A stretch of DNA of 25,084 nt from Gammaproteobacteria bacterium (GTDB taxonomy: Bacteria > Pseudomonadota > Gammaproteobacteria > Poriferisulfidales > Poriferisulfidaceae): the NCBI GenBank assembly GCA_007571105.1, contig RKRZ01000188.1, positions 1 to 25,084 on the forward strand, read 5' to 3'. Shown one piece after another: positions 1,033-20,424 of this stretch. Under the pieces are notes generated by a model. It made no database searches and was not told where the DNA came from. It worked only from the letters and a program-made list of their open reading frames with translations. Every line of letters starts with the position of its first letter. The first letter of the stretch is position 1. Position numbers and translations under genes: made by a program.

Positions 1033-2640
1033 CTAGCGTCGGCTGCGGCCCGCCAGCAAAAACACCGGAATCAGCCCCACCAGTACCAGCGTCACGGAGG
1101 GCAAGGCGGCTCGTTCCCACAACCCTTCTGCCGTCAGGCCATAGATGCGCACCGCCAGTGTGTCCCAACCGAACGGGCGCAGCAATAAGGTTGCCGGCAT
1201 TTCCTTCATGACATCCACCATCACCAAAAGCGCGGCCGTCAGCAAGCTGGGACGGAGCATGGGAATATACACCCGGCGGGCGGCTTCTGTGCCGACGATG
1301 CCCAGCGACTGTGCCGCTTCTCTCAAACTCGGTTTGACTTGTTCCAGTGCCGAATCAATCGGATTAAACGCCAGTGTCAGAAATCGCGCGAAGTATGCCA
1401 GCATCAAACTGGCCATGCTGCCAACCAGGATGGTGCTCGTTGCAACGCCTGTGATTGCCTCCCATATTCCTCCCAATTGGCGATCGATCCAGCTCAGCGA
1501 GAGCATCACGGCCACCGCCAGCACAGAGCCCGGCAAAGCGTAACCCAGCGTGCCGACCCGCGTGGCCATGTGGGTGATGGGCCCGGGATTCTTTCGCAAG
1601 GCGTAAGCCATCACAAAGGCGCCCGAGGTGATCACCACTGCTGCCATCACGCCCAGCAGGAGCGTGCGTCCCACCAGCCCCAGATACCCGGAGCTCGGTG
1701 CCGCCACACTGTCCCAAACCCAGAACAGCAACTGCCCCATCGGAATGATGAAGGCTACCGCCAATACCAGCGCGCACGCACCGCTTGCGAGAAGCGCACG
1801 CCCCCCGCGCAATTGCGGAACCACCAGACCCACTGTCCGGCCTTGCGTGACGTAGCGCGCCCGCGCCCGACTGTAGCGCTCCAGGCACAGCACCACAAAT
1901 ACAAACGTCAGAAGCAAGGATGCCAATTGGCTGGCCGCGCTCAGATCGTAAAACCCAAACCATGTCTTGTAGATTGCCGTCGTGAACGTGTCGAAATTGA
2001 ACACCGCCACCGCGCCAAAATCCGCCAATGCCTCCATCACCGCAAGACTGACTCCGGCGATAATTGCCGGGCGCGCCATCGGCAACGCTACACGCAGAAA
2101 GCTTTGCCATGGCGTCAGGCCCAGCGAGCGCGCCGCGTCCAGCGGCGCCGTACCTTGCTTCAGGAAGGAAGCGCGGGCCAGCATATACACATACGGGTAC
2201 AGCACCAGCGTCATGACGGCCAGTACCCCCAGGGGATGGCGCGCCTCTACATACCAGGAGCCGGGCAAATCAAACCAATCGCGCAGCGCCTCCTGCACCG
2301 GACCCTGAAAATCCAGAATGCCCAGGAACACAAAGGCCATCACATAGGTCGGCACCGCAAACGGCAGCATCAGCGCCCAATCAAAGATCCGGCTACCCGG
2401 AAAACGATAGGCCGACACCAGCCAGGCCAGAGCCACGCCGAGGACGGAGGTGCCGACGGCGACGCCGGCGGCCAGAAGTAATGTGTTGCCAAGCAGGCGC
2501 GGCAGCACTGTCGCCGCCAAGTGTGACCAGATTTCGGTGGCCGGCTCAAGCCAAGCCCCGAAAATAATCAGCAGGGGAATCAGGATGACTGCTGCGAGCA
2601 GCCCGCTCCCCCAATGCCAGAATGCGATCGGAACACTAAT
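1033..2640 (-). CDS. fbpB: Fe(3+) ABC transporter permease (FbpB); start codon uncertain
   Basis: Two permease halves with EAA-like loops (DAARSLGLTPWQSFLRVALPMARP; EAAQSLGIVG). The frame stays open upstream of the ORF-track TTG at 2520 through an extra hydrophobic helix (FWHWGSGLLAAVILIPLLIIFGAW) up to an in-frame TGA at 2683-2685. There is no ATG/GTG/TTG in that stretch, so the start is placed tentatively at ATT 2640. Confidence 0.9.
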   Translation of the reverse strand: MSVPIAFWHWGSGLLAAVILIPLLIIFGAWLEPATEIWSHLAATVLPRLLGNTLLLAAGVAVGTSVLGVALAWLVSAYRFPGSRIFDWALMLPFAVPTYVMAFVFLGILDFQGPVQEALRDWFDLPGSWYVEARHPLGVLAVMTLVLYPYVYMLARASFLKQGTAPLDAARSLGLTPWQSFLRVALPMARPAIIAGVSLAVMEALADFGAVAVFNFDTFTTAIYKTWFGFYDLSAASQLASLLLTFVFVVLCLERYSRARARYVTQGRTVGLVVPQLRGGRALLASGACALVLAVAFIIPMGQLLFWVWDSVAAPSSGYLGLVGRTLLLGVMAAVVITSGAFVMAYALRKNPGPITHMATRVGTLGYALPGSVLAVAVMLSLSWIDRQLGGIWEAITGVATSTILVGSMASLMLAYFARFLTLAFNPIDSALEQVKPSLREAAQSLGIVGTEAARRVYIPMLRPSLLTAALLVMVDVMKEMPATLLLRPFGWDTLAVRIYGLTAEGLWERAALPSVTLVLVGLIPVFLLAGRSRR

Positions 2641-2659
2641 TGAACTTCCCCGAGAACGC

Positions 2660-3658
2660 TCAGCGCCAGCCGGCCCGGTCCATCAACTGCACGGCCGCCG
2701 CCTGCAGCCGCCCTGTTTCGCTCAGGTTCAGGGAATCTGCCTTGAATTCGCCCCAGACCTGAACCTCGGGAACCGCCGGAATTTCCGGGTTGACCGGAAA
2801 TTCCTGATTCAGTTCGGCAAACAACCCTTGCGCCTCGCCCTGCGAAAGCCACTCCAGAAAGGCGCGCGCCGCCGCCGGGTGCCTCGCGTTCTTCAGCACC
2901 CCGCCTCCGGAGATATTCACGTGCACTCCGCGATCTTCCTGATTGGACCAGAACAGATCGAGCGGCAAGTCCGGCTCTTCGCGCATCAACCGGCCGAAAT
3001 AGTAGCTGTTGACGACCGTGACATCGCACTGCCCGGACGCCACTGCCTTCAATGCCTTGGTGTCATTGGAAAAGGGCGCCATTGCAAGGTTTGCGACCCA
3101 GCCGCGAACAATTTCTTCGGCCTTTTCCTCACCGTGATGGGCGATCAGGGTTGCCGTCAGCGATTGGTTGTAGACTTTTTTGGAAGTGCGCAGACACAGG
3201 CGGCCCTTCCATTGCGGCTCTACCAGCGCCTCATAGGTGGACAATTCTTCCGGAGAAGTCGCCTGCGTGTTGTAGGCAATGGTCCGCACGCGTCGAGAGA
3301 AGCCAAACCATTGGCCTTCCGGGTCGCGGAGCGCTGCCGGGACGGATCGGGTTAGGGTCTCTGAGCCCAACACAGAAAATAAGCCGCGTTGGGCCGCATG
3401 CCAGAGATTTCCGGCATCTACCGTCAGCAAAATATCGCCGTCCTCGCCATTCGCCGAAAGCCGCTCCAGCAAAGGCCCAGGCTTGCCCGTGTGCAAGTTG
3501 AACGCCACACCTGTCTGCTCGGTGTACAAATCCAGCACCGGCTCAATCAAATGCGCCTGGCGCGAAGAATAAATTGTCAGTGTGTTCGGCTCTTCAGCCG
3601 CATGCACAAAACCGGCGATCAGCGTGAATGCCACCACGCCCGGAACCAAACCGCGCAT
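2660..3658 (-). CDS. fbpA: Fe(3+) ABC transporter periplasmic binding protein (FbpA/FutA family)
   Basis: Signal peptide (MRGLVPGVVAFTLIAGFVHA), YSSRQ, DILLTVDAGNL, KVYNQSL, VVNSYY (Tyr-Tyr iron ligands), GVHVNISGGG. SD AAGGGA. First gene of the operon. Confidence 0.93.
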   Translation of the reverse strand: MRGLVPGVVAFTLIAGFVHAAEEPNTLTIYSSRQAHLIEPVLDLYTEQTGVAFNLHTGKPGPLLERLSANGEDGDILLTVDAGNLWHAAQRGLFSVLGSETLTRSVPAALRDPEGQWFGFSRRVRTIAYNTQATSPEELSTYEALVEPQWKGRLCLRTSKKVYNQSLTATLIAHHGEEKAEEIVRGWVANLAMAPFSNDTKALKAVASGQCDVTVVNSYYFGRLMREEPDLPLDLFWSNQEDRGVHVNISGGGVLKNARHPAAARAFLEWLSQGEAQGLFAELNQEFPVNPEIPAVPEVQVWGEFKADSLNLSETGRLQAAAVQLMDRAGWR

Positions 3659-3730: not shown

Positions 3731-5497
3731 TCAAATCACGTTCAATTGCAGCCAGCGCTCCAGCGCTGCCGCATGCCACAAAAGGTTGCCGTCGATCCGG
3801 CTGCGCTGGTCCGGCTCGCGCAGCAATGCATCCAGATATTCCGGGCGAAACAGGCCGCGATTGCGGCACTGTGGCGATCCCAGCACGTCGCGCGCCCAAT
3901 CAAAAAAAGCGCCGCGAACAAACTTCAGCGCCGGAACCGGAAAATAGCCCTTGGGCCGGTCAATCACCGAATCCGGCAATCGGCCGCGCGCTAATGCGCG
4001 CAGCGGGTATTTGCCGCCGTCGCGCAACTTCATTTCTGCCGGCATCCCGGCGATAGTCTGCAAAAGTCCAGCATCCAGGTACGGCACCCGCGCTTCCAGC
4101 CCCCACGCCATGGTCATGTTGTCGACCCGCTTGACCGGATCATCCGTAATCAGCATGGTCACATCCATGCGCAACACCGCGTTGAGAAATTCGCCTTCCC
4201 CGCCCTCGGCAAGCCGCTCCTGCAGCAACGCGCGCGTGTGGTCTTCGCCGGCCCATGGAGGACATACGGCCGAGAGCAATTCCTCGTGCGTGCGGTCCAG
4301 ATAATGCCGACAGAAAGCCTCCAGGCCATCGGCGCGTTCTTCATGCATTCGGGGATACCAGAAATACCCCGCAAAGGCTTCATCCGCGCCCTGCCCACTC
4401 AAAACCACTGAGACATCCCGGCTCACCTGCTCGGACAGCAAATAAAACGCAATCGCATCCTGCGCCACCATCGGCTCACTCATGCAGGCAACCATTTCAT
4501 CCAGACGCGGCTGCAATTCGCTGTTGTCCACAAAGTAGCGATGGTGCTGGGTGCCGTAGTGCGCCACCACGGCATCGGAATACTCAAACTCATCGCCCGC
4601 CTCCTCTTCCGCGCTCTCGAAACCAACGCTGTAAGTCCGAACCGGCGACACGCCCGCCTCATCGAGCAGTGCGACCAGCAAACTGGAATCCAATCCCCCC
4701 GACAGCAAGACTCCCACCGGCACATCCGCCACTTCCAAGCGGCAGTGCACGGCTTCGCGCAACTGTTCATGCGCCCGCTCCAGCCACTCGTCCTCGGTGC
4801 GCTGCACATCCGGATTGTGCGCATCCAGCGTCCAGTACGCCCGACTGCGCACAGCGCCATCGGCCGATACCGTCATCGTATGTCCAGGCGCCAACTTGCG
4901 CACGCCCTTCAATAAGGTGTGCGGCGCCGGCACGCTGCCGTGCAGGCTCAGGTGATAGTGAAGCGCGACGGCATCCAGGTCCCGGTCCACTTCACCGGTT
5001 GCGAGCAACGCTTGGGTATTGGAGGCAAAATGAAAGTGGTCCTTGGTCTGCGCGAAATATAGGGGCTTGATCCCCAGTCGGTCGCGTGCCAGAAATAACC
5101 GCCTCGCTTCTTTGTCCCAGATTGCAAACGCAAACATCCCGGCCAGGCGTTCCACGCATTTCTCCCCCCACTCGGCATACGCCTTCAGAATCACTTCGCT
5201 GTCTCCTTCGGTAACAAACTGATGGCCGCAGCCGCTCAAATGCGCACGCAACTCCCGATAGTTGTAGATGCAGCCGTTGAACACCAGCCGACAGCCGGTG
5301 GCCTGGTCCTCAAGCGGTTGGTTAGAGCGCGGATGCAGGTCGACGATGCGCAGACGGCGATGGCCCAGGGCCACCGCCTCCTCCACCCAGCGGCCTTCGT
5401 GGTCCGGGCCGCGCCGCGCCAAGTGCGGCAACATGGCGTCCAACACGTCCGGGCGCGCCGCTTGCCGAAAACTCACCTCGCCAGCTATCCCGCACAT
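3731..5497 (-). CDS. asnB: Class II glutamine amidotransferase, AsnB-like; best resembles N-acetylglutaminylglutamine amidotransferase (AsnO type, TIGR03104)
   Basis: True start is MCGIAGE (ATG 5497, Ntn Cys2). Motifs RGPD, LGHRRL, FNGCIYNYRELR, LARDRLGIKPLY, LLSGGLDSS, SGQGADE, DDPVKRVDNMTMAWGLEARVP, IDRPKGYFPVPALK. The last two are recalled as typical of the NAGGN subfamily. 588 aa. Confidence 0.85.
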   Translation of the reverse strand: MCGIAGEVSFRQAARPDVLDAMLPHLARRGPDHEGRWVEEAVALGHRRLRIVDLHPRSNQPLEDQATGCRLVFNGCIYNYRELRAHLSGCGHQFVTEGDSEVILKAYAEWGEKCVERLAGMFAFAIWDKEARRLFLARDRLGIKPLYFAQTKDHFHFASNTQALLATGEVDRDLDAVALHYHLSLHGSVPAPHTLLKGVRKLAPGHTMTVSADGAVRSRAYWTLDAHNPDVQRTEDEWLERAHEQLREAVHCRLEVADVPVGVLLSGGLDSSLLVALLDEAGVSPVRTYSVGFESAEEEAGDEFEYSDAVVAHYGTQHHRYFVDNSELQPRLDEMVACMSEPMVAQDAIAFYLLSEQVSRDVSVVLSGQGADEAFAGYFWYPRMHEERADGLEAFCRHYLDRTHEELLSAVCPPWAGEDHTRALLQERLAEGGEGEFLNAVLRMDVTMLITDDPVKRVDNMTMAWGLEARVPYLDAGLLQTIAGMPAEMKLRDGGKYPLRALARGRLPDSVIDRPKGYFPVPALKFVRGAFFDWARDVLGSPQCRNRGLFRPEYLDALLREPDQRSRIDGNLLWHAAALERWLQLNVI

Positions 5498-5534: not shown

Positions 5535-6587
5535 ATGTCTGAATCGCTCGCCACACTCGCCCGGAACATTCACCAATGGGGGCACGCGCTGGGGTTTGAC
5601 CGGGTCGGCATTACCGATCCGGGGCTGGAAGAAGACGAACGCCATCTGCTCAACTGGCTGGGTCGCGGCTGGCATGGGGAAATGGACTACATGGCCCGCC
5701 ACGGCACCCGCCGCTCCCGCGCCGCCGAATTGATGCCGGGCACTCAGCGCGTGATTTCGGTGCGCATGAATTATCTGCCGCATGCACTCGGCGAAGCACG
5801 TTCGGCGCTTGAAGACCCCGCATCCGGATACATCTCACGCTACGCGCTGGGGCGCGACTACCACAAGGTTCTGCGCAGCCGCCTCAAGCGCCTGACCCGG
5901 CGAATTGAGAAGGCCGCCGGAGTCTTTCGCTGCCGCGTCTTTACGGACAGCGCGCCGGTGCTGGAGAAAGCACTGGCGCAAAAAGCCGGATTGGGCTGGA
6001 TCGGCAAGCATACCAACCTGCTGGCCGAGGACTCCGGGTCCTGGTTCTTCATTGGCGAGATCTACACCAACCTGCCGCTGCCCGCCGATCAGCCCCGGCA
6101 ACAGGAACATTGCGGCGAGTGCCAGGCCTGCATTGATGTCTGTCCCACGGACGCCATCATCGCGCCATACCAACTGGACGCCCGGCGGTGCATTTCCTAT
6201 CTGACCATCGAGCTGAAAGGCTCCATCCCCCTCTCCCTTCGCCCCCTGATCGGCAACCGCATCTACGGCTGCGACGACTGCCAACTGGTCTGTCCCTGGA
6301 ATCGCTACGCACAACTCTCTGCCGAGCCTGACTTTCGCGCCCGCACTCCCCTGACAAACCTCGCATTGACCCAAGCCATGAGCTGGAGCGAAGAGACTTT
6401 TCTGCGCCACACGGAAGGCTCCGCCATGCGCCGCATCGGCCACTTGCAATGGTTGCGCAATGTCGCTGTAGCGCTGGGAAATGCGCCGCGCACCGAATCT
6501 GTGATTGCTGCCCTGCGCGCACGCGCCACGCATCCGAGCGAGATGGTGCGCGAGCATGTGGATTGGGCGCTGCAGCGCCACAGTTGA
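5535..6587 (+). CDS. queG: tRNA epoxyqueuosine(34) reductase
   Basis: GWHGEMDYM, YISRYALGRDYHKV, DSAPVLEKALAQKAGLGWIGK, GSWFFIGE; 4Fe-4S motifs CGECQACIDVCPT and YGCDDCQLVCPWN. Confidence 0.96.
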   Translation: MSESLATLARNIHQWGHALGFDRVGITDPGLEEDERHLLNWLGRGWHGEMDYMARHGTRRSRAAELMPGTQRVISVRMNYLPHALGEARSALEDPASGYISRYALGRDYHKVLRSRLKRLTRRIEKAAGVFRCRVFTDSAPVLEKALAQKAGLGWIGKHTNLLAEDSGSWFFIGEIYTNLPLPADQPRQQEHCGECQACIDVCPTDAIIAPYQLDARRCISYLTIELKGSIPLSLRPLIGNRIYGCDDCQLVCPWNRYAQLSAEPDFRARTPLTNLALTQAMSWSEETFLRHTEGSAMRRIGHLQWLRNVAVALGNAPRTESVIAALRARATHPSEMVREHVDWALQRHS

Positions 6588-10205: not shown

Positions 10206-12647
<2,442 letters not shown>

Positions 12648-12656
<9 letters not shown>

Positions 12657-13718
12657 TGAAATGATCCCCTGTTCCACGTGGAACATTCGGCCTTCTGAAG
12701 CCATCGGAAAGGCCCCGGAAGGCCCGCCCACACAGCTGGCAAACAGCTGCGCTTCGCAGGCCGCCAATGCCTCCATCATCCGTTCCATATGACTGGCATC
12801 CAGCTCCGCCGCCAAGTCATCCACCAGCAGAATGCACCGCTCTCCTCGAATCTCCTGAAACAGCGCAATCTGTCCGAGCAACAGGCAGCCGGCAAGCAAT
12901 TTGGTCTGTCCCCGGGATGCGCAGCGCGCTGCCGGCATCCCGTCGAGCATCAATTCCACATCAGCTCGATGCGGTCCCACATCCGTCGCGATCCCCGACT
13001 GGCTCTTGTTCAAGGCCTCAAACAATCCCGTTTCTCGGTCAAATCCCGGACGATACGCAAATTCCAGTTGCTGGCCCGGAAGCAAAATCTGCGCAAACCC
13101 CTCAATTGAATCACGCGCTTCCGCCAAATAGCGGTCGCGCTGCTCATCCATGAGCGTGCCGGCCTCGGCCAGGGGGGCGTTCCAGGCTTGCGGGTTTTGC
13201 TGCGCTTTAAGTGCGGCGTTGCGCTGCTTTAATGCGCGTTGATAACTTGCCCAGGTGCTCCGATATTCCGGTTCCACGTGGAACACGCCCCAATCCAGCC
13301 ATGATCGGCGCCGCGCCGGCGCGCCATGCACCAAAGCCTGGCTGTCCGGGTGAATGCTCTGAACTGCCAGTCGCGGCGCCAAGTCCGCCAGTCCCTTCAA
13401 TGTCTCCTGACCACAGCGCAATTCCAAGGAATCGGCAGTCCGTTGCTGGCTCAGCCAGAAGGGCGGTGCCTCTTCTTTTGCGCCTTCCGGCTGCACTTGC
13501 CCGCGGATCAGATAATGTGTTTCGCCCTGCGTAATCAACTCGCGGGCCTTGTCCGTTCGGAAACTGCGCCCCCGTGCAAGCAGGTCGATGGCTTCCAGCA
13601 GCGTGGTCTTGCCCGCCGCGTTGGCCCCCGTAATCAGATTTAATGTAGCGTGAAACTCAAGTTCCGGAACTTCACGCAGACAACGCAACCCCTGGACTTC
13701 CAGGCGGGACAAGTGCAC
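12648..13718 (-). CDS. recF: DNA replication/repair protein RecF
   Basis: GANAAGKTTLLEAI, GRSFRT, PARRRSWLDWGVFH, GPHRAD, SRGQTK, LLVDDLAAELD; position between dnaN and gyrB. Confidence 0.96.
12670..12685. other. parS centromere site (perfect palindrome)
   Basis: TGTTCCACGTGGAACA, a perfect 16-bp palindrome matching the tGTTtCACGTGaAACa consensus in its Pseudomonas-type CC/GG form. Encodes MFHVEQ in RecF. Confidence 0.9.
13270..13285. other. parS centromere site
   Basis: GGTTCCACGTGGAACA, 15/16 identical to the site at 12670. Encodes VFHVEP in RecF. Confidence 0.85.
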
Positions 13719-13724
13719 CGGAAA

Positions 13725-14837
13725 TCAGGTTCGCATCGGCATGATGATGTGCGTGCCGTCTGTTTTCTCTCCGGACGTCAACAAAATGCTGCTGGTCTCA
13801 TTCTTCAGCCAGAGCACCACGTCGTCGGCCTGCATATTCTGGAGCGCATCCGATAAGTATTTGATACTCATAGAAATTTCTACCGGGTCGCCGGAATATT
13901 CCACTTCGAATTCCTCGACGCCTCCATCCCCCACATTGTTCTGGCAACTGATTTCGAGCCGTTCGCCAAGGCTCAGCTTAATGCCCTTGAGCGCCTCATC
14001 CGAAACCGACTCCAGGCGCTCGGTCGCCGACAAAAAGCTGCGCCGATTCACCGTGGCGCTGATTTCCCGATCGGTCGGAACCACGGCGCGATAATCCGGA
14101 TACTTGCCTTCCACCAAAATTGTCTGCAAAACCTGGTTGCCGCCGCCAATCTCCGCGCGCAGATGGTTGCCGGCCAGCCGAAGCACAACGTCGCCTTCAG
14201 AATCGCCCTGCAGGCATTTGATTAATTCCTCCACGCTCTTGTTGGGCAGAATCAACTGTGTCGGCTCCCGGATTCCCGTCTCCAGCGGGTATTCCATCAC
14301 CGCCATGCGGTGTCCGTCCGTCGCGGCGGCAGCGATCTTGTCCGGAGCCACATCCAACAGAACTCCCATCAAGTAATAACGCATGTCGTTCGCCGCGGTG
14401 GCATATTTCACCGGCGCAAGCAGACCCATCAGAATTTCTGCAGGAATTTCAATGCGTTGCTCTTCCTCTTTGGATTCCATGCTGGGGAATGCTTCCGGGT
14501 CCCGCGTCACCATCGTGTAGTTGCTGCTCTTGTGGTTGAAGCGCATGAGGTTCTGCTCGGCATCGTGCTCGAACACAATCTCCGCATCACTGGGAAACCG
14601 GGAACAAACGGCCAGCAATTTTCTGGCAGGCAGGGTGCAGGGGATCAGGTCCTCCCCCTTGACTTCGACCATAAAACTCAAGCGCAAATTGTTGTCGGTC
14701 GCCGTGAACGTCACGCTGTCGGAGGTCGGCTCAATAAGAAAATCAGTCGTGGCGCTGACCGTTTGGGGTCCGGGAACAATGCCGGCGAGCTTGCTCAGCG
14801 GCGCCACGAGTTGAGATTGTTCAATAGTAAATTTCAT
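13725..14837 (-). CDS. dnaN: DNA polymerase III beta sliding clamp
   Basis: FTATD, LPARKL, DMRYYLMGVLL, AATDGHRM, EGKYPDYRAV, IIMPMR; 370 aa; SD TAGGA. Confidence 0.96.
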   Translation of the reverse strand: MKFTIEQSQLVAPLSKLAGIVPGPQTVSATTDFLIEPTSDSVTFTATDNNLRLSFMVEVKGEDLIPCTLPARKLLAVCSRFPSDAEIVFEHDAEQNLMRFNHKSSNYTMVTRDPEAFPSMESKEEEQRIEIPAEILMGLLAPVKYATAANDMRYYLMGVLLDVAPDKIAAAATDGHRMAVMEYPLETGIREPTQLILPNKSVEELIKCLQGDSEGDVVLRLAGNHLRAEIGGGNQVLQTILVEGKYPDYRAVVPTDREISATVNRRSFLSATERLESVSDEALKGIKLSLGERLEISCQNNVGDGGVEEFEVEYSGDPVEISMSIKYLSDALQNMQADDVVLWLKNETSSILLTSGEKTDGTHIIMPMRT

Positions 14838-14902
14838 GGGTCCTAATTCTTGTTGTTATTAAGCCGCGGCGGATTCGGGGAAAAGCCAAAAAACACTATG
14901 GA

Positions 14903-14915
14903 TATCAAAGCGTTT
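14903..14915 (+). promoter_or_regulatory. IHF-like binding site
   Basis: TATCAA-AGCG-TTT, one mismatch to WATCAANNNNTTR, preceded by A-tracts (AAAAGCCAAAAAAC). Confidence 0.5.
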
Positions 14916-14929
14916 CCTGGTCGCTCTGC

Positions 14930-14938
14930 GGTGGATAA
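14930..14938 (-). promoter_or_regulatory. DnaA box (1 mismatch)
   Basis: GGTGGATAA = TTATCCACC on the minus strand. Confidence 0.65.
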
Positions 14939-14998
14939 GGGAATGTGGGGTGGGCATGAATCCGGAAGCGGAGAGGGGATCAACAGAGAAGCGTCAGT

Positions 14999-15017
14999 TG
15001 TGAATAAGTTATCCACA
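14999..15017. promoter_or_regulatory. Inverted pair of consensus DnaA boxes
   Basis: TGTGAATAA-G-TTATCCACA. Both match TTWTNCACA and lie 14 nt past the dnaA stop. Confidence 0.9.
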
Positions 15018-15031
15018 TGATTTTGCCCGAC

Positions 15032-16377
15032 TCAGTTTAGCAGTTTTCGCTTGATGTTCTTATAGGCATCACGAATGCTTTGGCTTTCTCCGCCGATACT
15101 GTCGTCCTCGCCGTTGAGGATGGCGTCGATTTTATGGCAGGCGTGCAGGACGGTGGTGTGGTCACGCCCGCCGAAGGCTTCTCCGATGGAAGCCAGGCTC
15201 ATGGAGGTCAACTCGTGCGTCAGCTTCATCGCCAGCTGGCGCGGAACCACGATCTCTTTAGGCCGGCGCCGAGAACGGATGGCTTCTTCCGGGATTCCGA
15301 AGTATTCCGTGACGGTGGCGCGAATGCGCGAGACATTGATGAGCCGCTCGCGCACCGGCATGAGGTCGCGCAGCGCGTGGCGCGCAAAAGCGACATCAAT
15401 TTCGGCCTTCTCGATCCCGGCCTGCAGCAGCACGCGCGACAGCGCGCTCTCCAACTCCCGAATGCTGCCGATCATGTTCTCGCCGATGAAGTAAGCAACG
15501 TCATGCGGCAGGGTGACTCCGCGTTGCGCCGCTTTATTGAGAAGGATGGCGGCGCGGTGTTCGGTGCTGGGCGGATCAATGGCGGCAGAGAAGCCGCCGC
15601 CCAGGCGTGAAGACAGGCGCGTCTCAAGCCCGTCGATTTCTTTCGGATAGCGATCGCAGGTTGCGACGATCTGCCGTTGTTTGCCGACTAAGGCATTGAA
15701 TGTATGGAAAAATTCATCTTGCGAACGCTCCTTGCCGGCCAGGAATTGAATGTCGTCGATCAACAGCAGGTCGACGCTTCGATGAAAAGCCTTGAATTGT
15801 TCCACGCGCTTGTATTGCAGCGCGTTGACCAGCCCCTGCACGAACTGTTCGCAATGCAGGTAGACCACGTGAAGCTCCGGCTGGGTTTCCTGCACGTGGT
15901 TGCCGATGGCCTGCATCAGGTGTGTTTTGCCCAGCCCGACGCCGCCGTAGATCAGGAAGGGATTGAAATTGCTCTGGCCGGGTTCGCGGGCGATCTCGTT
16001 CGCCACGGTGTGCGCGATTTCGTTGGAGCGTCCGACAACAAATTTCTCGAACGTGAATCGCGGCAGCAGGGGGTCTTCAGAAGAGGGATTTTGCAGAGGC
16101 TGGGGGGGGGATTTTCGGCGGTCTCGGGAGAGCCGACCAGCAGCTTGACTTCTCTGACTTCGCTGTGAGCATGGTCTTCGGAGTGGATGAAGAAGTGTTC
16201 GATTCGGCCAAGAAAGCGGTTGCGGACCTGCTGGAGGACCACCAGATTGGGCGCCAGCAGACGAAGGATGTTGGAATCCTCCTCTGCGAACAGCGGGCGC
16301 AAAAAAGTATTGATTTCAGATTCGGGGAATTCCGTTTCCATTCGACGAAGACAAGCTTGCCAGGCAACAGAAGTCAC
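15032..16377 (-). CDS. dnaA: Chromosomal replication initiator DnaA, split by a 1-nt frameshift at 16102-16110
   Basis: Domain I (GTG 16377: MTSVAWQACLRRMETEFPESEINTFLRPL...APN) is in one frame. The AAA+ and DNA-binding domains (LLPRFTFEKFVVG, YGGVGLGKTHL, LLIDDIQF, RLSSR, IRELES, GGRDHTTVLHA) are in the -1 frame. C10 in place of C9 gives one 448-aa ORF. Confidence 0.95.
16102..16110. repeat. G9/C9 homopolymer at the dnaA frame junction
   Basis: TGGGGGGGGGA on the plus strand; the longest homopolymer noticed in the window. Confidence 0.95.
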
Positions 16378-16454
16378 GAACCGAATCCCGAGAGTGCTCG
16401 TTTTCTTTTCCCCGTCTGGTGGAACAGGCGCGAAAATCGTGGAAAGGGCCAAGC

Positions 16455-16589
16455 ACTATACGACATCCGAAAACCCGCCTCTGCAAGTATCGGAAATTTC
16501 AATAATATTGCTGAAAGCCCTTTTTTCAGAGTGCTTATATCTTATTGATATTAAATAATTTTGATGGGGTTAGGCGGAAGTTTTGCACA
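16455..16589 (-). promoter_or_regulatory. dnaA upstream region: -10 candidate, AT-rich tract, IHF-like site and DnaA box
   Basis: TATAGT (minus, 16460-16455); AT-rich about 16497-16563; TATCAATAAGATA (minus, 16550-16538, one mismatch to the IHF consensus) with an upstream A/T tract; TTTTGCACA (16581-16589) matches TTWTNCACA. Confidence 0.55.
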
Positions 16590-16651
16590 GAAATGACTGC
16601 AATTACAATAGCCTGGAGTCTTTGCGGTGCGGGCGCACTTTTCCGGTGGGC

Positions 16652-17146
16652 CTACGGGTAGATTTCGATGGGCGTGTTGAGGTCCACCAGATCCCAGACC
16701 TCTTTCATGTGCATGTTGCTAAGCGCAATGCAGCCGTCCGTCCAATTGCGGCCGCTGAACATCAGCAGGCTGCGCTTTTCCAGACCCGGCATGCCGTGAA
16801 TCATGATGTCGCCGCCGGGAGATTTGCCGAGCGTGCGGGCGTGGACACGGTCGGCGGCATTCGGGTAGGACAACTTGATCGAGCGGTAAAACCGGCTTTT
16901 CGTGTTGCGCTGATACAGCAGGTAGCGCCCTTCCGGAGTGCGCAAGTCTCCTTGATGACGTTTGTGCCCGACCGGATTGCCGCCGAGATAGATCGGATAA
17001 CTGCGGACTTTGCGCTGCCCGGCCATCAGTGACAGTTGCTGTTCAGATTTGTAGACGACCACGCGGTCGATCGGGCTGTCGGCAACCGCGGTTGCCGGCA
17101 GCACAGCGCACAAGATCCCTCCCCAAAACAGGCGGCGCGTGCTCAT
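16652..17146 (-). CDS. YkuD/L,D-transpeptidase-family protein (YafK/DpaA-like)
   Basis: GHKRHQGDLRTPEGRY, GGDIMIHG (His), WTDGCIAL (catalytic Cys); N-terminal signal peptide with TRRLF. Its ATG overlaps the M23 stop (ATGA). Confidence 0.85.
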   Translation of the reverse strand: MSTRRLFWGGILCAVLPATAVADSPIDRVVVYKSEQQLSLMAGQRKVRSYPIYLGGNPVGHKRHQGDLRTPEGRYLLYQRNTKSRFYRSIKLSYPNAADRVHARTLGKSPGGDIMIHGMPGLEKRSLLMFSGRNWTDGCIALSNMHMKEVWDLVDLNTPIEIYP

Positions 17147-17997
17147 GGCGCTGTGGCGGTGTCTGCCGATTCGGGCATCGGGCCGACCAAGAGCGCGGGG
17201 TCGACGCGGGTGTCAAACCAGTTCATGCGCCAATCCAGGTGCGGTCCCGTTGAGCGCCCGGTTGAGCCGACAGTCGCGAAGCGTTCGCCCCGACGGAGCT
17301 CTTGTCCGAGTTCGGCTTCGATGGCCTGCAGATGGAGGAACGTGGAGGAGACGCCATAGCCGTGATCCAGAATCACGGTGCCGCCGGTGTAGAACATGTC
17401 CGGGTGCGCCAGTGTGATGCGCCCGGAAGCCGGCGCATAGACTGGGGTGCCTTCCTCGGCTGCGATGTCGATGCCGTAGTGCGGATTGCGCGGTTCGCCA
17501 TTGAGGACGCGCGCACTGCCGTACACTCCGGTGATGACGCCTTCGACGGGCCATTGGAAACGCTCGGTGAACCCGAGCAGTGCGCTGGATTCGGCGCGGG
17601 CCTCGGCTACTTGCGCCTGGTCCTCGCGAATGCGCGTCAGGTCCTCTTCCTTGGGAGAAACCAGACGCGACGGCAACCCTTTAATGTGTTGCACCTGATA
17701 CTCGCGCGGCGCGATGCGCAAGGAATGTTGCGCCGTGGTGCCATCCGGGCTGGAGACGGTCAGGACGGAAGTCTCGGGATGATCGCGTCCGAAACCGAAG
17801 GTAAAGAACCCGTCCGGGGTGGTGGCGACAGGCTCGCCATCGAGCGTGACCTGTGCCCCGGGCGCGACCTGCCCGCGCAGCAAACCGCCTTGAGTCAGCG
17901 TGCCGTCCAGTGAGAGATCCATGGCGAGCAGGGCAGGGGCGCAGACGAGCAGCAGGGCGAGACCAAGTCGATGCGGCAAGAATGAGAGACAGCGCAT
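17143..17997 (-). CDS. M23 family metallopeptidase (peptidoglycan DD-endopeptidase-like), secreted
   Basis: Start re-placed at ATG 17997 (MRCLSFLPHRLGLALLLVCAPALLA signal peptide). WPVEGVITGVYG, PHYGIDIAA (HxxxD), DHGYGVSSTFLHL, GSTGRSTGPHLDW. Confidence 0.88.
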   Translation of the reverse strand: MRCLSFLPHRLGLALLLVCAPALLAMDLSLDGTLTQGGLLRGQVAPGAQVTLDGEPVATTPDGFFTFGFGRDHPETSVLTVSSPDGTTAQHSLRIAPREYQVQHIKGLPSRLVSPKEEDLTRIREDQAQVAEARAESSALLGFTERFQWPVEGVITGVYGSARVLNGEPRNPHYGIDIAAEEGTPVYAPASGRITLAHPDMFYTGGTVILDHGYGVSSTFLHLQAIEAELGQELRRGERFATVGSTGRSTGPHLDWRMNWFDTRVDPALLVGPMPESADTATAP

Positions 17998-18103
17998 TTG
18001 GGCGCGACAGTATACCGCCTGGGTCGGGGACAGGTTGTAGAATGGAACGGACAGGGAAGGACTCGCAGTTCTTTTTGGAAACTTCGTCTGCAGGAGCGAA
18101 ATC

Positions 18104-18646
18104 ATGGCAGAAACCTTCACGATGGATCTGGAAGCCATTCGCGAGCGCGCGCGCCGGAAAATGGAGGACGGCGCGGTCACCGGCGCCTATGGGGCCGACG
18201 TCAATCAGGTCATTGATGTGTTGAATGAGGTGCTGGCGACCGAGATCGTCTGCGTGCTGCGCTATCGCAACCACTACTACATGGCGAGCGGGGTGAATTC
18301 GCCGACCGTGGCGGCGGAGTTTCTCGAGCACGCCAACGAGGAGCAGATGCATGCGGACTGGGCGGCGCAGCGGATCACGCAATTGGGCGGCGCACCGAAT
18401 TTCAACCCGGAAGGCCTGGCGACGCGGGCGCATGCGGAATATGCGGAGGGCGAGACTCTGGACGAGATGATTCGCGAGGACCTGGTCGCGGAGCGAATCG
18501 CGATTGAGACCTATTCGGAGATCATTCGTTGGCTGAAAGACAACGATCCGACCACCCGGCGGATGATCGAGGACATTCTGAAAATGGAAGAGGAACACGC
18601 CGACGATTTGGCCAACCTGCTGGAGATGGTGGAAAGCGGCGCATAA
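18104..18646 (+). CDS. Ferritin-like protein, DpsL/bacterioferritin-like (resembles Pseudomonas PA4880 family)
   Basis: LNEVLATEIVCVLRY, EFLEHANEEQMHAD, AERIAIETY, DPTTRR, EEEHADDL (di-iron ExxH motifs); N-terminal extension RERARRKMEDGAVTGAY; SD CAGGAG. Confidence 0.82.
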   Translation: MAETFTMDLEAIRERARRKMEDGAVTGAYGADVNQVIDVLNEVLATEIVCVLRYRNHYYMASGVNSPTVAAEFLEHANEEQMHADWAAQRITQLGGAPNFNPEGLATRAHAEYAEGETLDEMIREDLVAERIAIETYSEIIRWLKDNDPTTRRMIEDILKMEEEHADDLANLLEMVESGA

Positions 18647-18667
18647 CCGCGATCCTGGGCGAGAGAC

Positions 18668-18744
<77 letters not shown>

Positions 18745-18763
18745 GTCTCAGGCCCCCAAGGTT

Positions 18764-18769
18764 TATAAT
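18764..18769 (+). promoter_or_regulatory. Candidate -10 for the nuo operon
   Basis: Perfect TATAAT about 100 nt upstream of nuoA; no good -35 at 17 nt. Confidence 0.4.
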
Positions 18770-18868
18770 CGCAAGGCATTGATGCCGCCTGAATTGGTTG
18801 CTGATGAGACTCGCAGGAACGTCTTCTGAAAAGTTTGAAATCCACCGCCCGAAGAGGCCGGAGGCCTG

Positions 18869-19225
18869 ATGCTTGACGAGTATCTGGCGGTGTTGTTGTT
18901 CCTGGGGCTGGGCGGTGGCATCGGGGTGGCGACGCTGATGGTCAGCTGGCTGCTTGCGCCGCGCGAGCCGAATCCGGAGAAGGTGCTGCCGTACGAGTGC
19001 GGATTCGACGCCCTCGGCGATGCCCGCATGAGCTTTGATGTGCGCTACTACCTGGTGGTGATCCTGTTTGTGCTGTTTGATTTGGAGGTGGCGTTTCTGT
19101 TTCCGTGGGCGGTGGCGCTGCAGGACGTGGGCACTTATGGCCTGATCAGCATGGCGGTGTTTCTGCTGCTGCTGGCGGCCGGCTTTATTTATGAGCTGCG
19201 CCGGGGAGCGCTGGAATGGGATTGA
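18869..19225 (+). CDS. nuoA: NADH-quinone oxidoreductase subunit A
   Basis: [34 protein letters not shown]; SD GGAGG. Confidence 0.97.
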
Positions 19226-19731
19226 GTCTGCCCGAACAGGAGCCGGTCTGGCCGCAATCGGCCGGCACGCTCAAGCAGGAAGGATTTATGGTCACCAGCG
19301 CGGATTCGCTGGTGCGCTGGGCCCGCTCCGGTTCGTTGTGGCCGATGACTTTTGGGCTGGCCTGCTGCGCAGTCGAAATGATGCATGCGGGGGCGGCGCG
19401 CTATGACCTGGACCGTTTCGGCATGCTGTTTCGCCCGAGTCCGCGGCAGTCGGATGTCATGATCGTGGCCGGCACGCTGGTCAATAAGATGGCGCCGGCG
19501 TTGCGGCGGGTGTACGACCAGATGCCGGAGCCCAAATGGGTGATCTCGATGGGCTCGTGCGCGAACGGTGGGGGCTACTATCACTATTCGTACTCCGTCG
19601 TACGCGGTTGCGACCGGATTGTGCCGGTAGACATTTATGTCCCGGGCTGCCCGCCGACCGCGGAGGCCCTGCTTTACGGCATTCTGCAACTGCAGCACAA
19701 AATCCGCCGCGCACGCAAGAAGGCCCGCTGA
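19216..19731 (+). CDS. nuoB: NADH-quinone oxidoreductase subunit B
   Basis: [39 protein letters not shown] (N2 cluster). Confidence 0.98.
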
Positions 19732-19746
19732 TCTAGAGGCCGCTGA

Positions 19747-20424
19747 ATGGATTCGGCCGAGACAGCTCCAAACCATGCGCTGGCCGAGCGTTTGGGTGAG
19801 CGGGCCCAGTGGCAGGAGCACGCGGACGGGCCGGCCCTGGAAGTGGCGGCGGCGGATTTGCTGGAAGTCATGAGCCTCTTGCGCGATGATCCCGAGGCGC
19901 GCTTTGAGCAATTGATGGACCTCGCCGGCATGGACTATGCCGAATTCGGCCAGAGCGAGTGGAAGACCGAACAGGCGAGTGCGACCGGATTCTCCCGCGC
20001 CGTGCATCCGGCGACCTCCGCACGCTATTCTTTCGATGCGCCGCATCCGCCGATCTCCGGCGAGCGCCGTTTTGCCGTGGTCTATCACCTGCTGTCGTTG
20101 AGCCGCAATCAGCGTCTGCGCGTGCGCGCCTATTGCGAGGACGGGGAATGGCCCTCCGTGCCGTCGGTTCGGGAACTCTGGCGTTGCGCCGACTGGTACG
20201 AGCGCGAGGCCTTTGATCTGTTCGGCATCGTGTTTGAAGGCCACCCGGACCTGCGCCGCATCCTGACCGATTACGGCTTCATCGGCCATCCGCTGCGCCG
20301 CGACTTCCCGCTCAGCGGACACATGGAGGTGCGTTACGATCCCGAATTGCGCCGGGTGGTGTACGAACCGGTCTCGATCGAGGCGCGCGTGGGCGTTCCC
20401 CGGGTGTTGCGGGAGACGGCCTGA
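19747..20424 (+). CDS. nuoC: NADH-quinone oxidoreductase subunit C (separate from D)
   Basis: [47 protein letters not shown]. Confidence 0.96.

Follow-up and report, generated by a model that had tools for sequence, protein, structure and literature searches.

The dnaA gene in the stretch of DNA analyzed here (the window, 25,084 bases in its whole length) is probably intact, and the run of nine C residues (C9) that breaks its reading frame would then be no control device, the low-coverage assembly having either under-called the tract or captured a length found in a minority of the population. As assembled, the window lacks one continuous DnaA reading frame, which is present in a 99.65%-identical contig. 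On the minus strand, dnaA starts at the GTG at 16377 and its frame is broken by the C9 run at 16102-16110, where the coding-strand letters are GAA AAT, nine C and AGC. The parts of the gene are listed here with the evidence that defines them.

Positions 16111 to 16377, minus strand: 5' part of dnaA in frame A, with the GTG start, domain I and the start of the domain II linker, 89 codons to ...ETAEN (translation, Pfam).
Positions 16102 to 16110, minus strand: C9 homopolymer (G9 on the plus strand), the point at which the reading frame breaks (frame-model switch; sole indel against contig L023).
Positions 15952 to 16101, minus strand: out-of-frame tail of the frame-A product, 49 foreign codons and a TGA (translation).
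Positions 15032 to 16101, minus strand: 3' part of dnaA in the -1 frame, with the remainder of the linker (QPLQNPSSEDPLLPRF...), the AAA+ domain III, the DNA-binding domain IV and the stop (translation, Pfam).

Translated from GTG 16377, the product opens with VTSVAWQACLRRMETEF..., a typical DnaA domain I, and runs to ...SPETAEN. Frame A as assembled encodes 141 aa, of which 92 are native residues (ending in ENPPP) and 49 are foreign, with the TGA at 15954-15952. From the C9 run onward, the -1 frame stays open until the stop at 15034-15032; it encodes QPLQNPSSEDPLLPRFTFEKF... and, after this, the AAA+ and DNA-binding domains. Pfam families were assigned to both pieces: DnaA_N (PF11638) to the frame-A piece, at E = 1.2e-7 and 31.8 bits against a cut-off of 24.6, and Bac_DnaA (PF00308, 1.3e-64) and Bac_DnaA_C (PF08299, 1.5e-27) to the second-frame piece. 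The predicted product would have 448 aa with a run of ten C (C10) and 447 aa with a run of seven (C7). An earlier, sequence-only reading of this DNA had reported the C9 run, the 141-aa product and the 448-aa product restored by one extra C, and its coordinates and numbers for dnaA were all correct on retranslation.

A periodic Markov model of the coding frame, trained on the long open reading frames of this genome, placed the change of frame exactly at the C9 run, with negative frame-A coding potential downstream of it. All other frame switches in the window are ordinary gene junctions with a start codon. No start codon explains the switch in dnaA, because the first one available to the second frame, a GTG at 16006, lies about 100 bases past the run. 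An arrangement as a pair of genes or a split gene was considered and rejected: a start at GTG 16006 would remove conserved domain III residues, and the locus is therefore a break and not two genes. This is also the single full copy of dnaA in the genome, the second match being a 228-aa Hda-like AAA+ protein on another contig. The C9 run is the only C/G run of at least 8 bases in the whole window, and its occurrence is statistically unremarkable, as 34 of 100 shuffles of the window gave at least as many C8 matches.

Downstream of dnaA, the neighborhood contains the following features.

Positions 13725 to 14837, minus strand: dnaN (beta clamp), intact, the next gene downstream of dnaA (370-aa open reading frame).
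Positions 14930 to 15017, no strand assigned: DnaA box cluster in the dnaA-dnaN spacer, with perfect TTATNCACA boxes at 14999-15007 and 15009-15017 and a one-mismatch box at 14930-14938.

The DNA_pol3_beta Pfam families were found on the counterpart of dnaN in contig L024. The two perfect boxes stand in opposite orientation, 1 base apart, and are the sole perfect matches in the 25-kb window; the cluster fits a putative origin or dnaN control region at 14930-15017.

A contig from an independent JGI metagenome (L023) is 99.65% identical to the window over positions 13781-16342 (2563 bases), and the single indel between the two falls at the C9 run. Here L023 has TCCTCCCCCC, ten bases in frame, so that AAT, nine C and AG in the window correspond to AAT TCC TCC CCC CAG in L023, coding for ENSSPQ; this allele is interrupted, with a maximum of six consecutive C. 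The DnaA of L023 (P0123), found in the 90% cluster of the window's 324-aa C-terminal open reading frame, is intact at 436 aa, the end of the contig cutting off its N-terminal residues. From METEF (window position 16341) onward, the N-terminal parts of the two proteins are identical except for one A/D change beside the run. Of the nine differences between the window and L023, three lie within 11 bases at the run (16118, the one-base gap and 16108) and the other six are in dnaN. Across the 1070 dnaA bases downstream of the run there are 0 differences, and the second frame thus shows no decay.

The comparison was extended to 40 relatives, 15 of them congeneric, and in all 40 DnaA matched over domains II-IV with no internal stop, in frames of 430-513 aa. 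The linker was read in 19 relatives (14 congeners and five from other families), and its DNA was inspected in seven congeners. Since C runs in these 19 linkers did not exceed C7 and were all in frame, the C9 run is strain-specific and not a conserved recoding site. The sequence-only reading had proposed looking for a C run at the same site in sister genomes, and no such long run was found there. The congener linker is rich in proline and serine and carries the homologous motif TCC TCC CCC CCG CAG (SSPPQ) or close variants of it; the C9 run differs from this pyrimidine-rich stretch by T-to-C changes and a one-base deficit.

The source genome is metagenome-assembled and comprises 1.24 Mb in 205 contigs (77% complete, 56.5% G+C), with an estimated full size near 1.6 Mb. 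Its closest named genomes are Candidatus Porisulfidus metagenome-assembled genomes, and the organism is an uncultured sponge symbiont. The window is one entire contig and the longest of the genome, in which, in round numbers, no contig exceeds 25 kb. The stretch is present in four public sponge-metagenome runs (X1-X4), all from one study, whose contigs (and not reads) gave depths of about 2-6x over positions 12000-20000, none of them crossing the C9 run. Run X1 has the SNP pattern of the window and a hole over 15914-16185, and runs X3 and X4 are likewise without cover at the C9 run. The contig of run X2 stops exactly at 16111, with one differing letter and three unaligned letters, as would be expected if the interrupted allele had been aligned without gaps. 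Run X2 also has the five dnaN SNPs of L023 (14191, 14297, 14646, 14710 and 14827) while run X1 matches the window, indicating that at least two strains are present in the sponge samples. One of these sponge strains so appears to carry a stable, interrupted and in-frame version of the site.

Searches for further copies of the junction were negative within the collections used. A 61-base query centered on the run (three sampled words) matched no public run, and no RNA dataset was among those listed as containing the stretch. Exact flanks with a variable gap gave 0 matches among metagenome contigs, a collection apparently without near-identical records; the best match of a protein-guided scan there reached only 48% identity. 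A protein search with 101 residues across the junction returned only the window's own 129-aa fragment. Neither the contigs of the four runs nor these searches yielded a sequence with C10 from the strain of the window.

The assembly as a whole is not generally prone to homopolymer errors, and its pattern resembles that of short-read data. Frame switches occurred at 24 of 3216 homopolymers of 5-8 bases, compared to 0.88% at random positions, and no assembly-wide excess of frame breaks was found at runs of this length. Of the seven G/C runs of at least 9 bases in the genome, the one in dnaA alone was flagged for a frame switch. As short homopolymers elsewhere are without excess frame errors, an under-call would be specific to the C9 run, and in short-read data a consensus miscount at 9-10 bases would arise only if depth was very low, PCR had stuttered or the population was truly mixed.

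Altogether, these observations are most consistent with a dnaA that is, in the living population, an ordinary initiator gene, unbroken and present in one copy, and we infer that the run is truly ten bases long in the strain of the window. The true sequence at the site would most likely be C10 (ENPPPQ), a substitution variant of the sister TCC TCC CCC C (ENSSPQ). The deposited contig would be one C short because a long G/C run provoked stutter during sequencing or PCR, or because a consensus was picked at low depth in a mixed-strain metagenome. The C9 may also stem from a slipped subpopulation that exists but is small; since the genus is rich in long, hypermutable-looking G/C runs, true variation in length at this site is plausible. 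Nothing would be programmed in either case, and the run would be a lineage-specific accident in a proline/serine-rich linker that tolerates changes in length.

A homopolymer under-call in an intact essential gene had already been preferred by the sequence-only reading. This explanation is favored here on indirect grounds, namely the in-frame ten-base version in a near-identical strain, the low-depth runs, the lack of a second dnaA and the intact genes of relatives. The locus resembles known homopolymer miscalls from low-coverage metagenomes in that a single-base deficit occurs at the sole 9-10-base G/C run in a core gene, the runs are of low depth, their contigs end at the C9 tract and an intact, nearly identical allele is present in another metagenome. 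It is unlike them in that the short homopolymers of this assembly are read without excess frame errors. Until reads say otherwise, the C9 break is best treated as no real feature, and the appropriate annotation for dnaA in this contig is intact or 'frameshifted; low-quality sequence', not pseudogene. More generally, when a Candidatus Porisulfidus assembly shows a single-base break at a G/C run, the reads should be checked before a biological reading is attempted.

The C9 could instead be real and dominant, a very recent one-base slip that inactivated dnaA. Such a null allele would be a dead end beside intact copies in polyploid cells, or it would mark the onset of dnaA loss in a symbiont that is confined to its host, has a reduced genome and can start replication in another way. 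The lack of a general excess of homopolymer frame errors in the assembly is in keeping with this explanation, as are the many long G/C runs in the genus, which suggest frequent slippage and make even a C9 majority in one sponge conceivable. Precedents exist as well, dnaA having been lost or pseudogenized in several insect endosymbionts, with losses described in Blochmannia, Wigglesworthia, Baumannia, Carsonella and Sulcia (PMC4389277, PMC5448010). The organism studied here shares with them host association, a reduced genome and a disrupted dnaA. However, those symbionts have far smaller genomes in which dnaA is absent or carries many lesions, whereas here a single lesion is found, the relatives are intact and a genome of about 1.6 Mb is far from the extreme reduction that accompanies dnaA loss. 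A null allele also has to be reconciled with an intact dnaA in 15 of 15 congeneric genomes and in the 99.65%-identical strain, with unchanged sequence over the 1070 downstream bases, with the DnaA boxes that are kept and with intact MutS and MutL. We consider this explanation unlikely.

We regard it as very unlikely that the C9 is real and that some full-length DnaA, in small amounts, is made from it by decoding errors, whether ribosomes slip by -1 on C CCC CCC without any programming or RNA polymerase inserts an additional C. Leaky decoding of this kind would resemble what is seen with broken poly(A) tracts in Buchnera genes or with indels in the G runs of herpes thymidine kinase. In the zero frame, C CCC CCC fits the X XXY YYZ pattern of a slippery heptamer, and a -1 shift there gives the correct frame; the fit is a formal one only. 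No GGAGG or AGGA-like element, as expected of a Shine-Dalgarno-like stimulator, was present in the 24 bases upstream of the run when these were read directly. A 136-nt RNA spanning the run had a folding energy of -23.5 kcal/mol, whereas its shuffles averaged -27.7 kcal/mol (z = +1.27, that is, less structured than the shuffles), and no stem in this fold began within 10 nt after the run. The observation of the sequence-only reading that a Shine-Dalgarno element and a strong hairpin stimulator are missing was thus borne out. On C runs, proline tRNAs favor +1 shifts. A +1 shift was considered as a means of rescue and rejected, as the +1 frame meets a stop about 8 codons beyond the run.

The composition of the run speaks against slippage of the RNA polymerase. 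The C9 has the length associated with transcriptional slippage (about 9 or more) and lacks the A or T composition that gives a weak RNA:DNA hybrid. In the transcriptome-wide data of Traverse and Ochman, 100% of the insertions within homopolymers fell in A/T runs and none in G/C runs, which led the authors to regard G/C runs as not slippage-prone (PMC5574713). A large review of recoding describes compensatory frameshifting at low level on G runs, and no mention of dnaA was found in the part of its text that was searched (PMC5009743). The break is common to no relative, and neither the shift site nor the two-frame layout is conserved in the relatives or in the near-identical strain.

Two known systems invite comparison with a leaky or programmed reading of the run. 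In Buchnera and Blochmannia, frameshifts at poly(A) tracts are reportedly read through by means of polymerase slippage, a finding that is attributed to Tamas et al. in 2008 and is mentioned in PMC5009743. These constitute the nearest true parallel, as they too are one-base frame breaks in a homopolymer of at least 9 bases in a symbiont. They differ in that the breaks occur in A/T runs, are common to sister species and leave both halves under selection, whereas here the run is C/G and is absent from the 99.65%-identical strain and from all congeners. The dnaX gene of E. coli, with its tau and gamma products, is likewise a replication gene with a slippery heptamer and possible short and long products. 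In dnaX, a conserved A AAA AAG is combined with an upstream Shine-Dalgarno-like stimulator, a downstream hairpin and a functional short product. Unlike dnaX, the C9 site in dnaA has neither stimulator, is not conserved, and would yield a short product ending in 49 unrelated residues. The dnaX-like ratio of products and the transcriptional slippage raised by the sequence-only reading found no backing in these results, given the missing stimulator, the lack of conservation at the site and the reported absence of transcriptional slippage on G/C runs (PMC5574713).

A more novel reading, in which the C9 occupies most genome copies and the strain lives on a trickle of full-length DnaA, made by occasional -1 decoding or supplied by C10 copies that arose through slippage in polyploid cells, appears highly improbable to us. 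If true, it would mean that the supply of the initiator is set by run length, in a lineage of sponge symbionts with genomes rich in hypermutable G/C runs, and would amount to a stochastic brake on replication that has not been described for any bacterium.

That the run is an evolved slipped-strand switch, a contingency locus acting on replication initiation or on the ratio of full DnaA to a domain-I fragment in the service of dormancy or host control, is hardly credible. In its favor, long G/C runs do occur in this genome (in or at the start of glycan-related genes) and across the whole genus, and the linker in which the run lies is the only region of DnaA where changes in length are tolerated (PMC5448010). 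Against it, the site lacks conservation: the version in the nearest strain is interrupted and stable, and the congeners have at most C7. A run of 9-10 bases is also shorter than the other long runs of the genome (11-14). The off state of an essential, single-copy dnaA would be lethal and not merely silent, and its product would consist of domain I and 49 junk residues, without any conserved alternative C-terminus. Nearly all bacteria require DnaA (PMC5448010).

The poly-G/C contingency loci of Campylobacter, Neisseria and Haemophilus are similar to the dnaA site in that the length of a coding G/C homopolymer sets the frame, and runs of 11-14 bases in glycan-related genes are present in the same genome. 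In dnaA, a long coding G/C run breaks the frame as in phase-variable loci, and the gene, the only dnaA present, is not a dispensable one. Variation of run length between near-identical strains with the run itself kept was not seen, the one near-identical strain having the interrupted version. Known contingency genes are non-essential and mostly surface-related, with the run kept across strains. Unlike these, dnaA is essential and its run is strain-specific and shorter. We know of no contingency locus that is an essential replication gene. The on/off switch of initiation suggested by the sequence-only reading is unsupported, its site not being conserved. Were the break real and maintained, it would be the first length-variable run to control an essential replication initiator, and it would bear on the throttling of symbiont growth by the host or by the symbiont itself.

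Apart from the question of dnaA, the long G/C runs of this genome and genus were surveyed as a subject in their own right. Run lengths in the genome are bimodal, with 24 runs of 7 bases, four of 8, one of 9 (in dnaA), none of 10 and six of 11-14. The six longest, all outside the window, are located as follows (contigs of the source genome, G000).

Contig C77, positions 6417-6427: G11.
Contig C117, positions 138-151: C14.
Contig C130, positions 2803-2814: G12.
Contig C158, positions 3741-3752: G12.
Contig C158, positions 3870-3880: C11.
Contig C169, positions 12437-12448: C12.

One of these runs lies inside a polysaccharide pyruvyl transferase gene, one at the 5' end of a family-2 (GT2) glycosyltransferase gene and one in codons 2-6 of a gene for a FAD-dependent, geranylgeranyl-reductase-like oxidoreductase, the two orthologues of which in the genus are without the run; the three others are near contig ends. 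G/C runs of at least 10 bases were found in all 16 genomes of the genus (G000-G015), with overlapping 10-mers numbering from about 13 to nearly 600 per genome, and the longest runs reach at least 21 bases (e.g., G002, contig C8, positions 125381-125401). Together, the long runs of this genome and the genus-wide counts look like classical slipped-strand phase variation of surface glycans. No literature linking sponge symbionts with homopolymer phase variation was found, and cluster look-ups for the genes with long runs, intended for a comparison of lengths between strains, returned singletons only.

Loss of mismatch repair was considered as a cause of instability and rejected, since MutS and MutL are both present and open in this genome. 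Across the genus, MutS was found in 16 of 16 genomes and MutL in 15 of 16.

The survey also bears on the annotation of the oxidoreductase. The public call for this gene (G000, contig C130, positions 1706-3166, minus strand) has 474 aa, the frame being open over 116 further codons before the ATG that lies ahead of the C12 run. Because the orthologues start at the ATG preceding the C12 run, the 474-aa call is probably over-extended.
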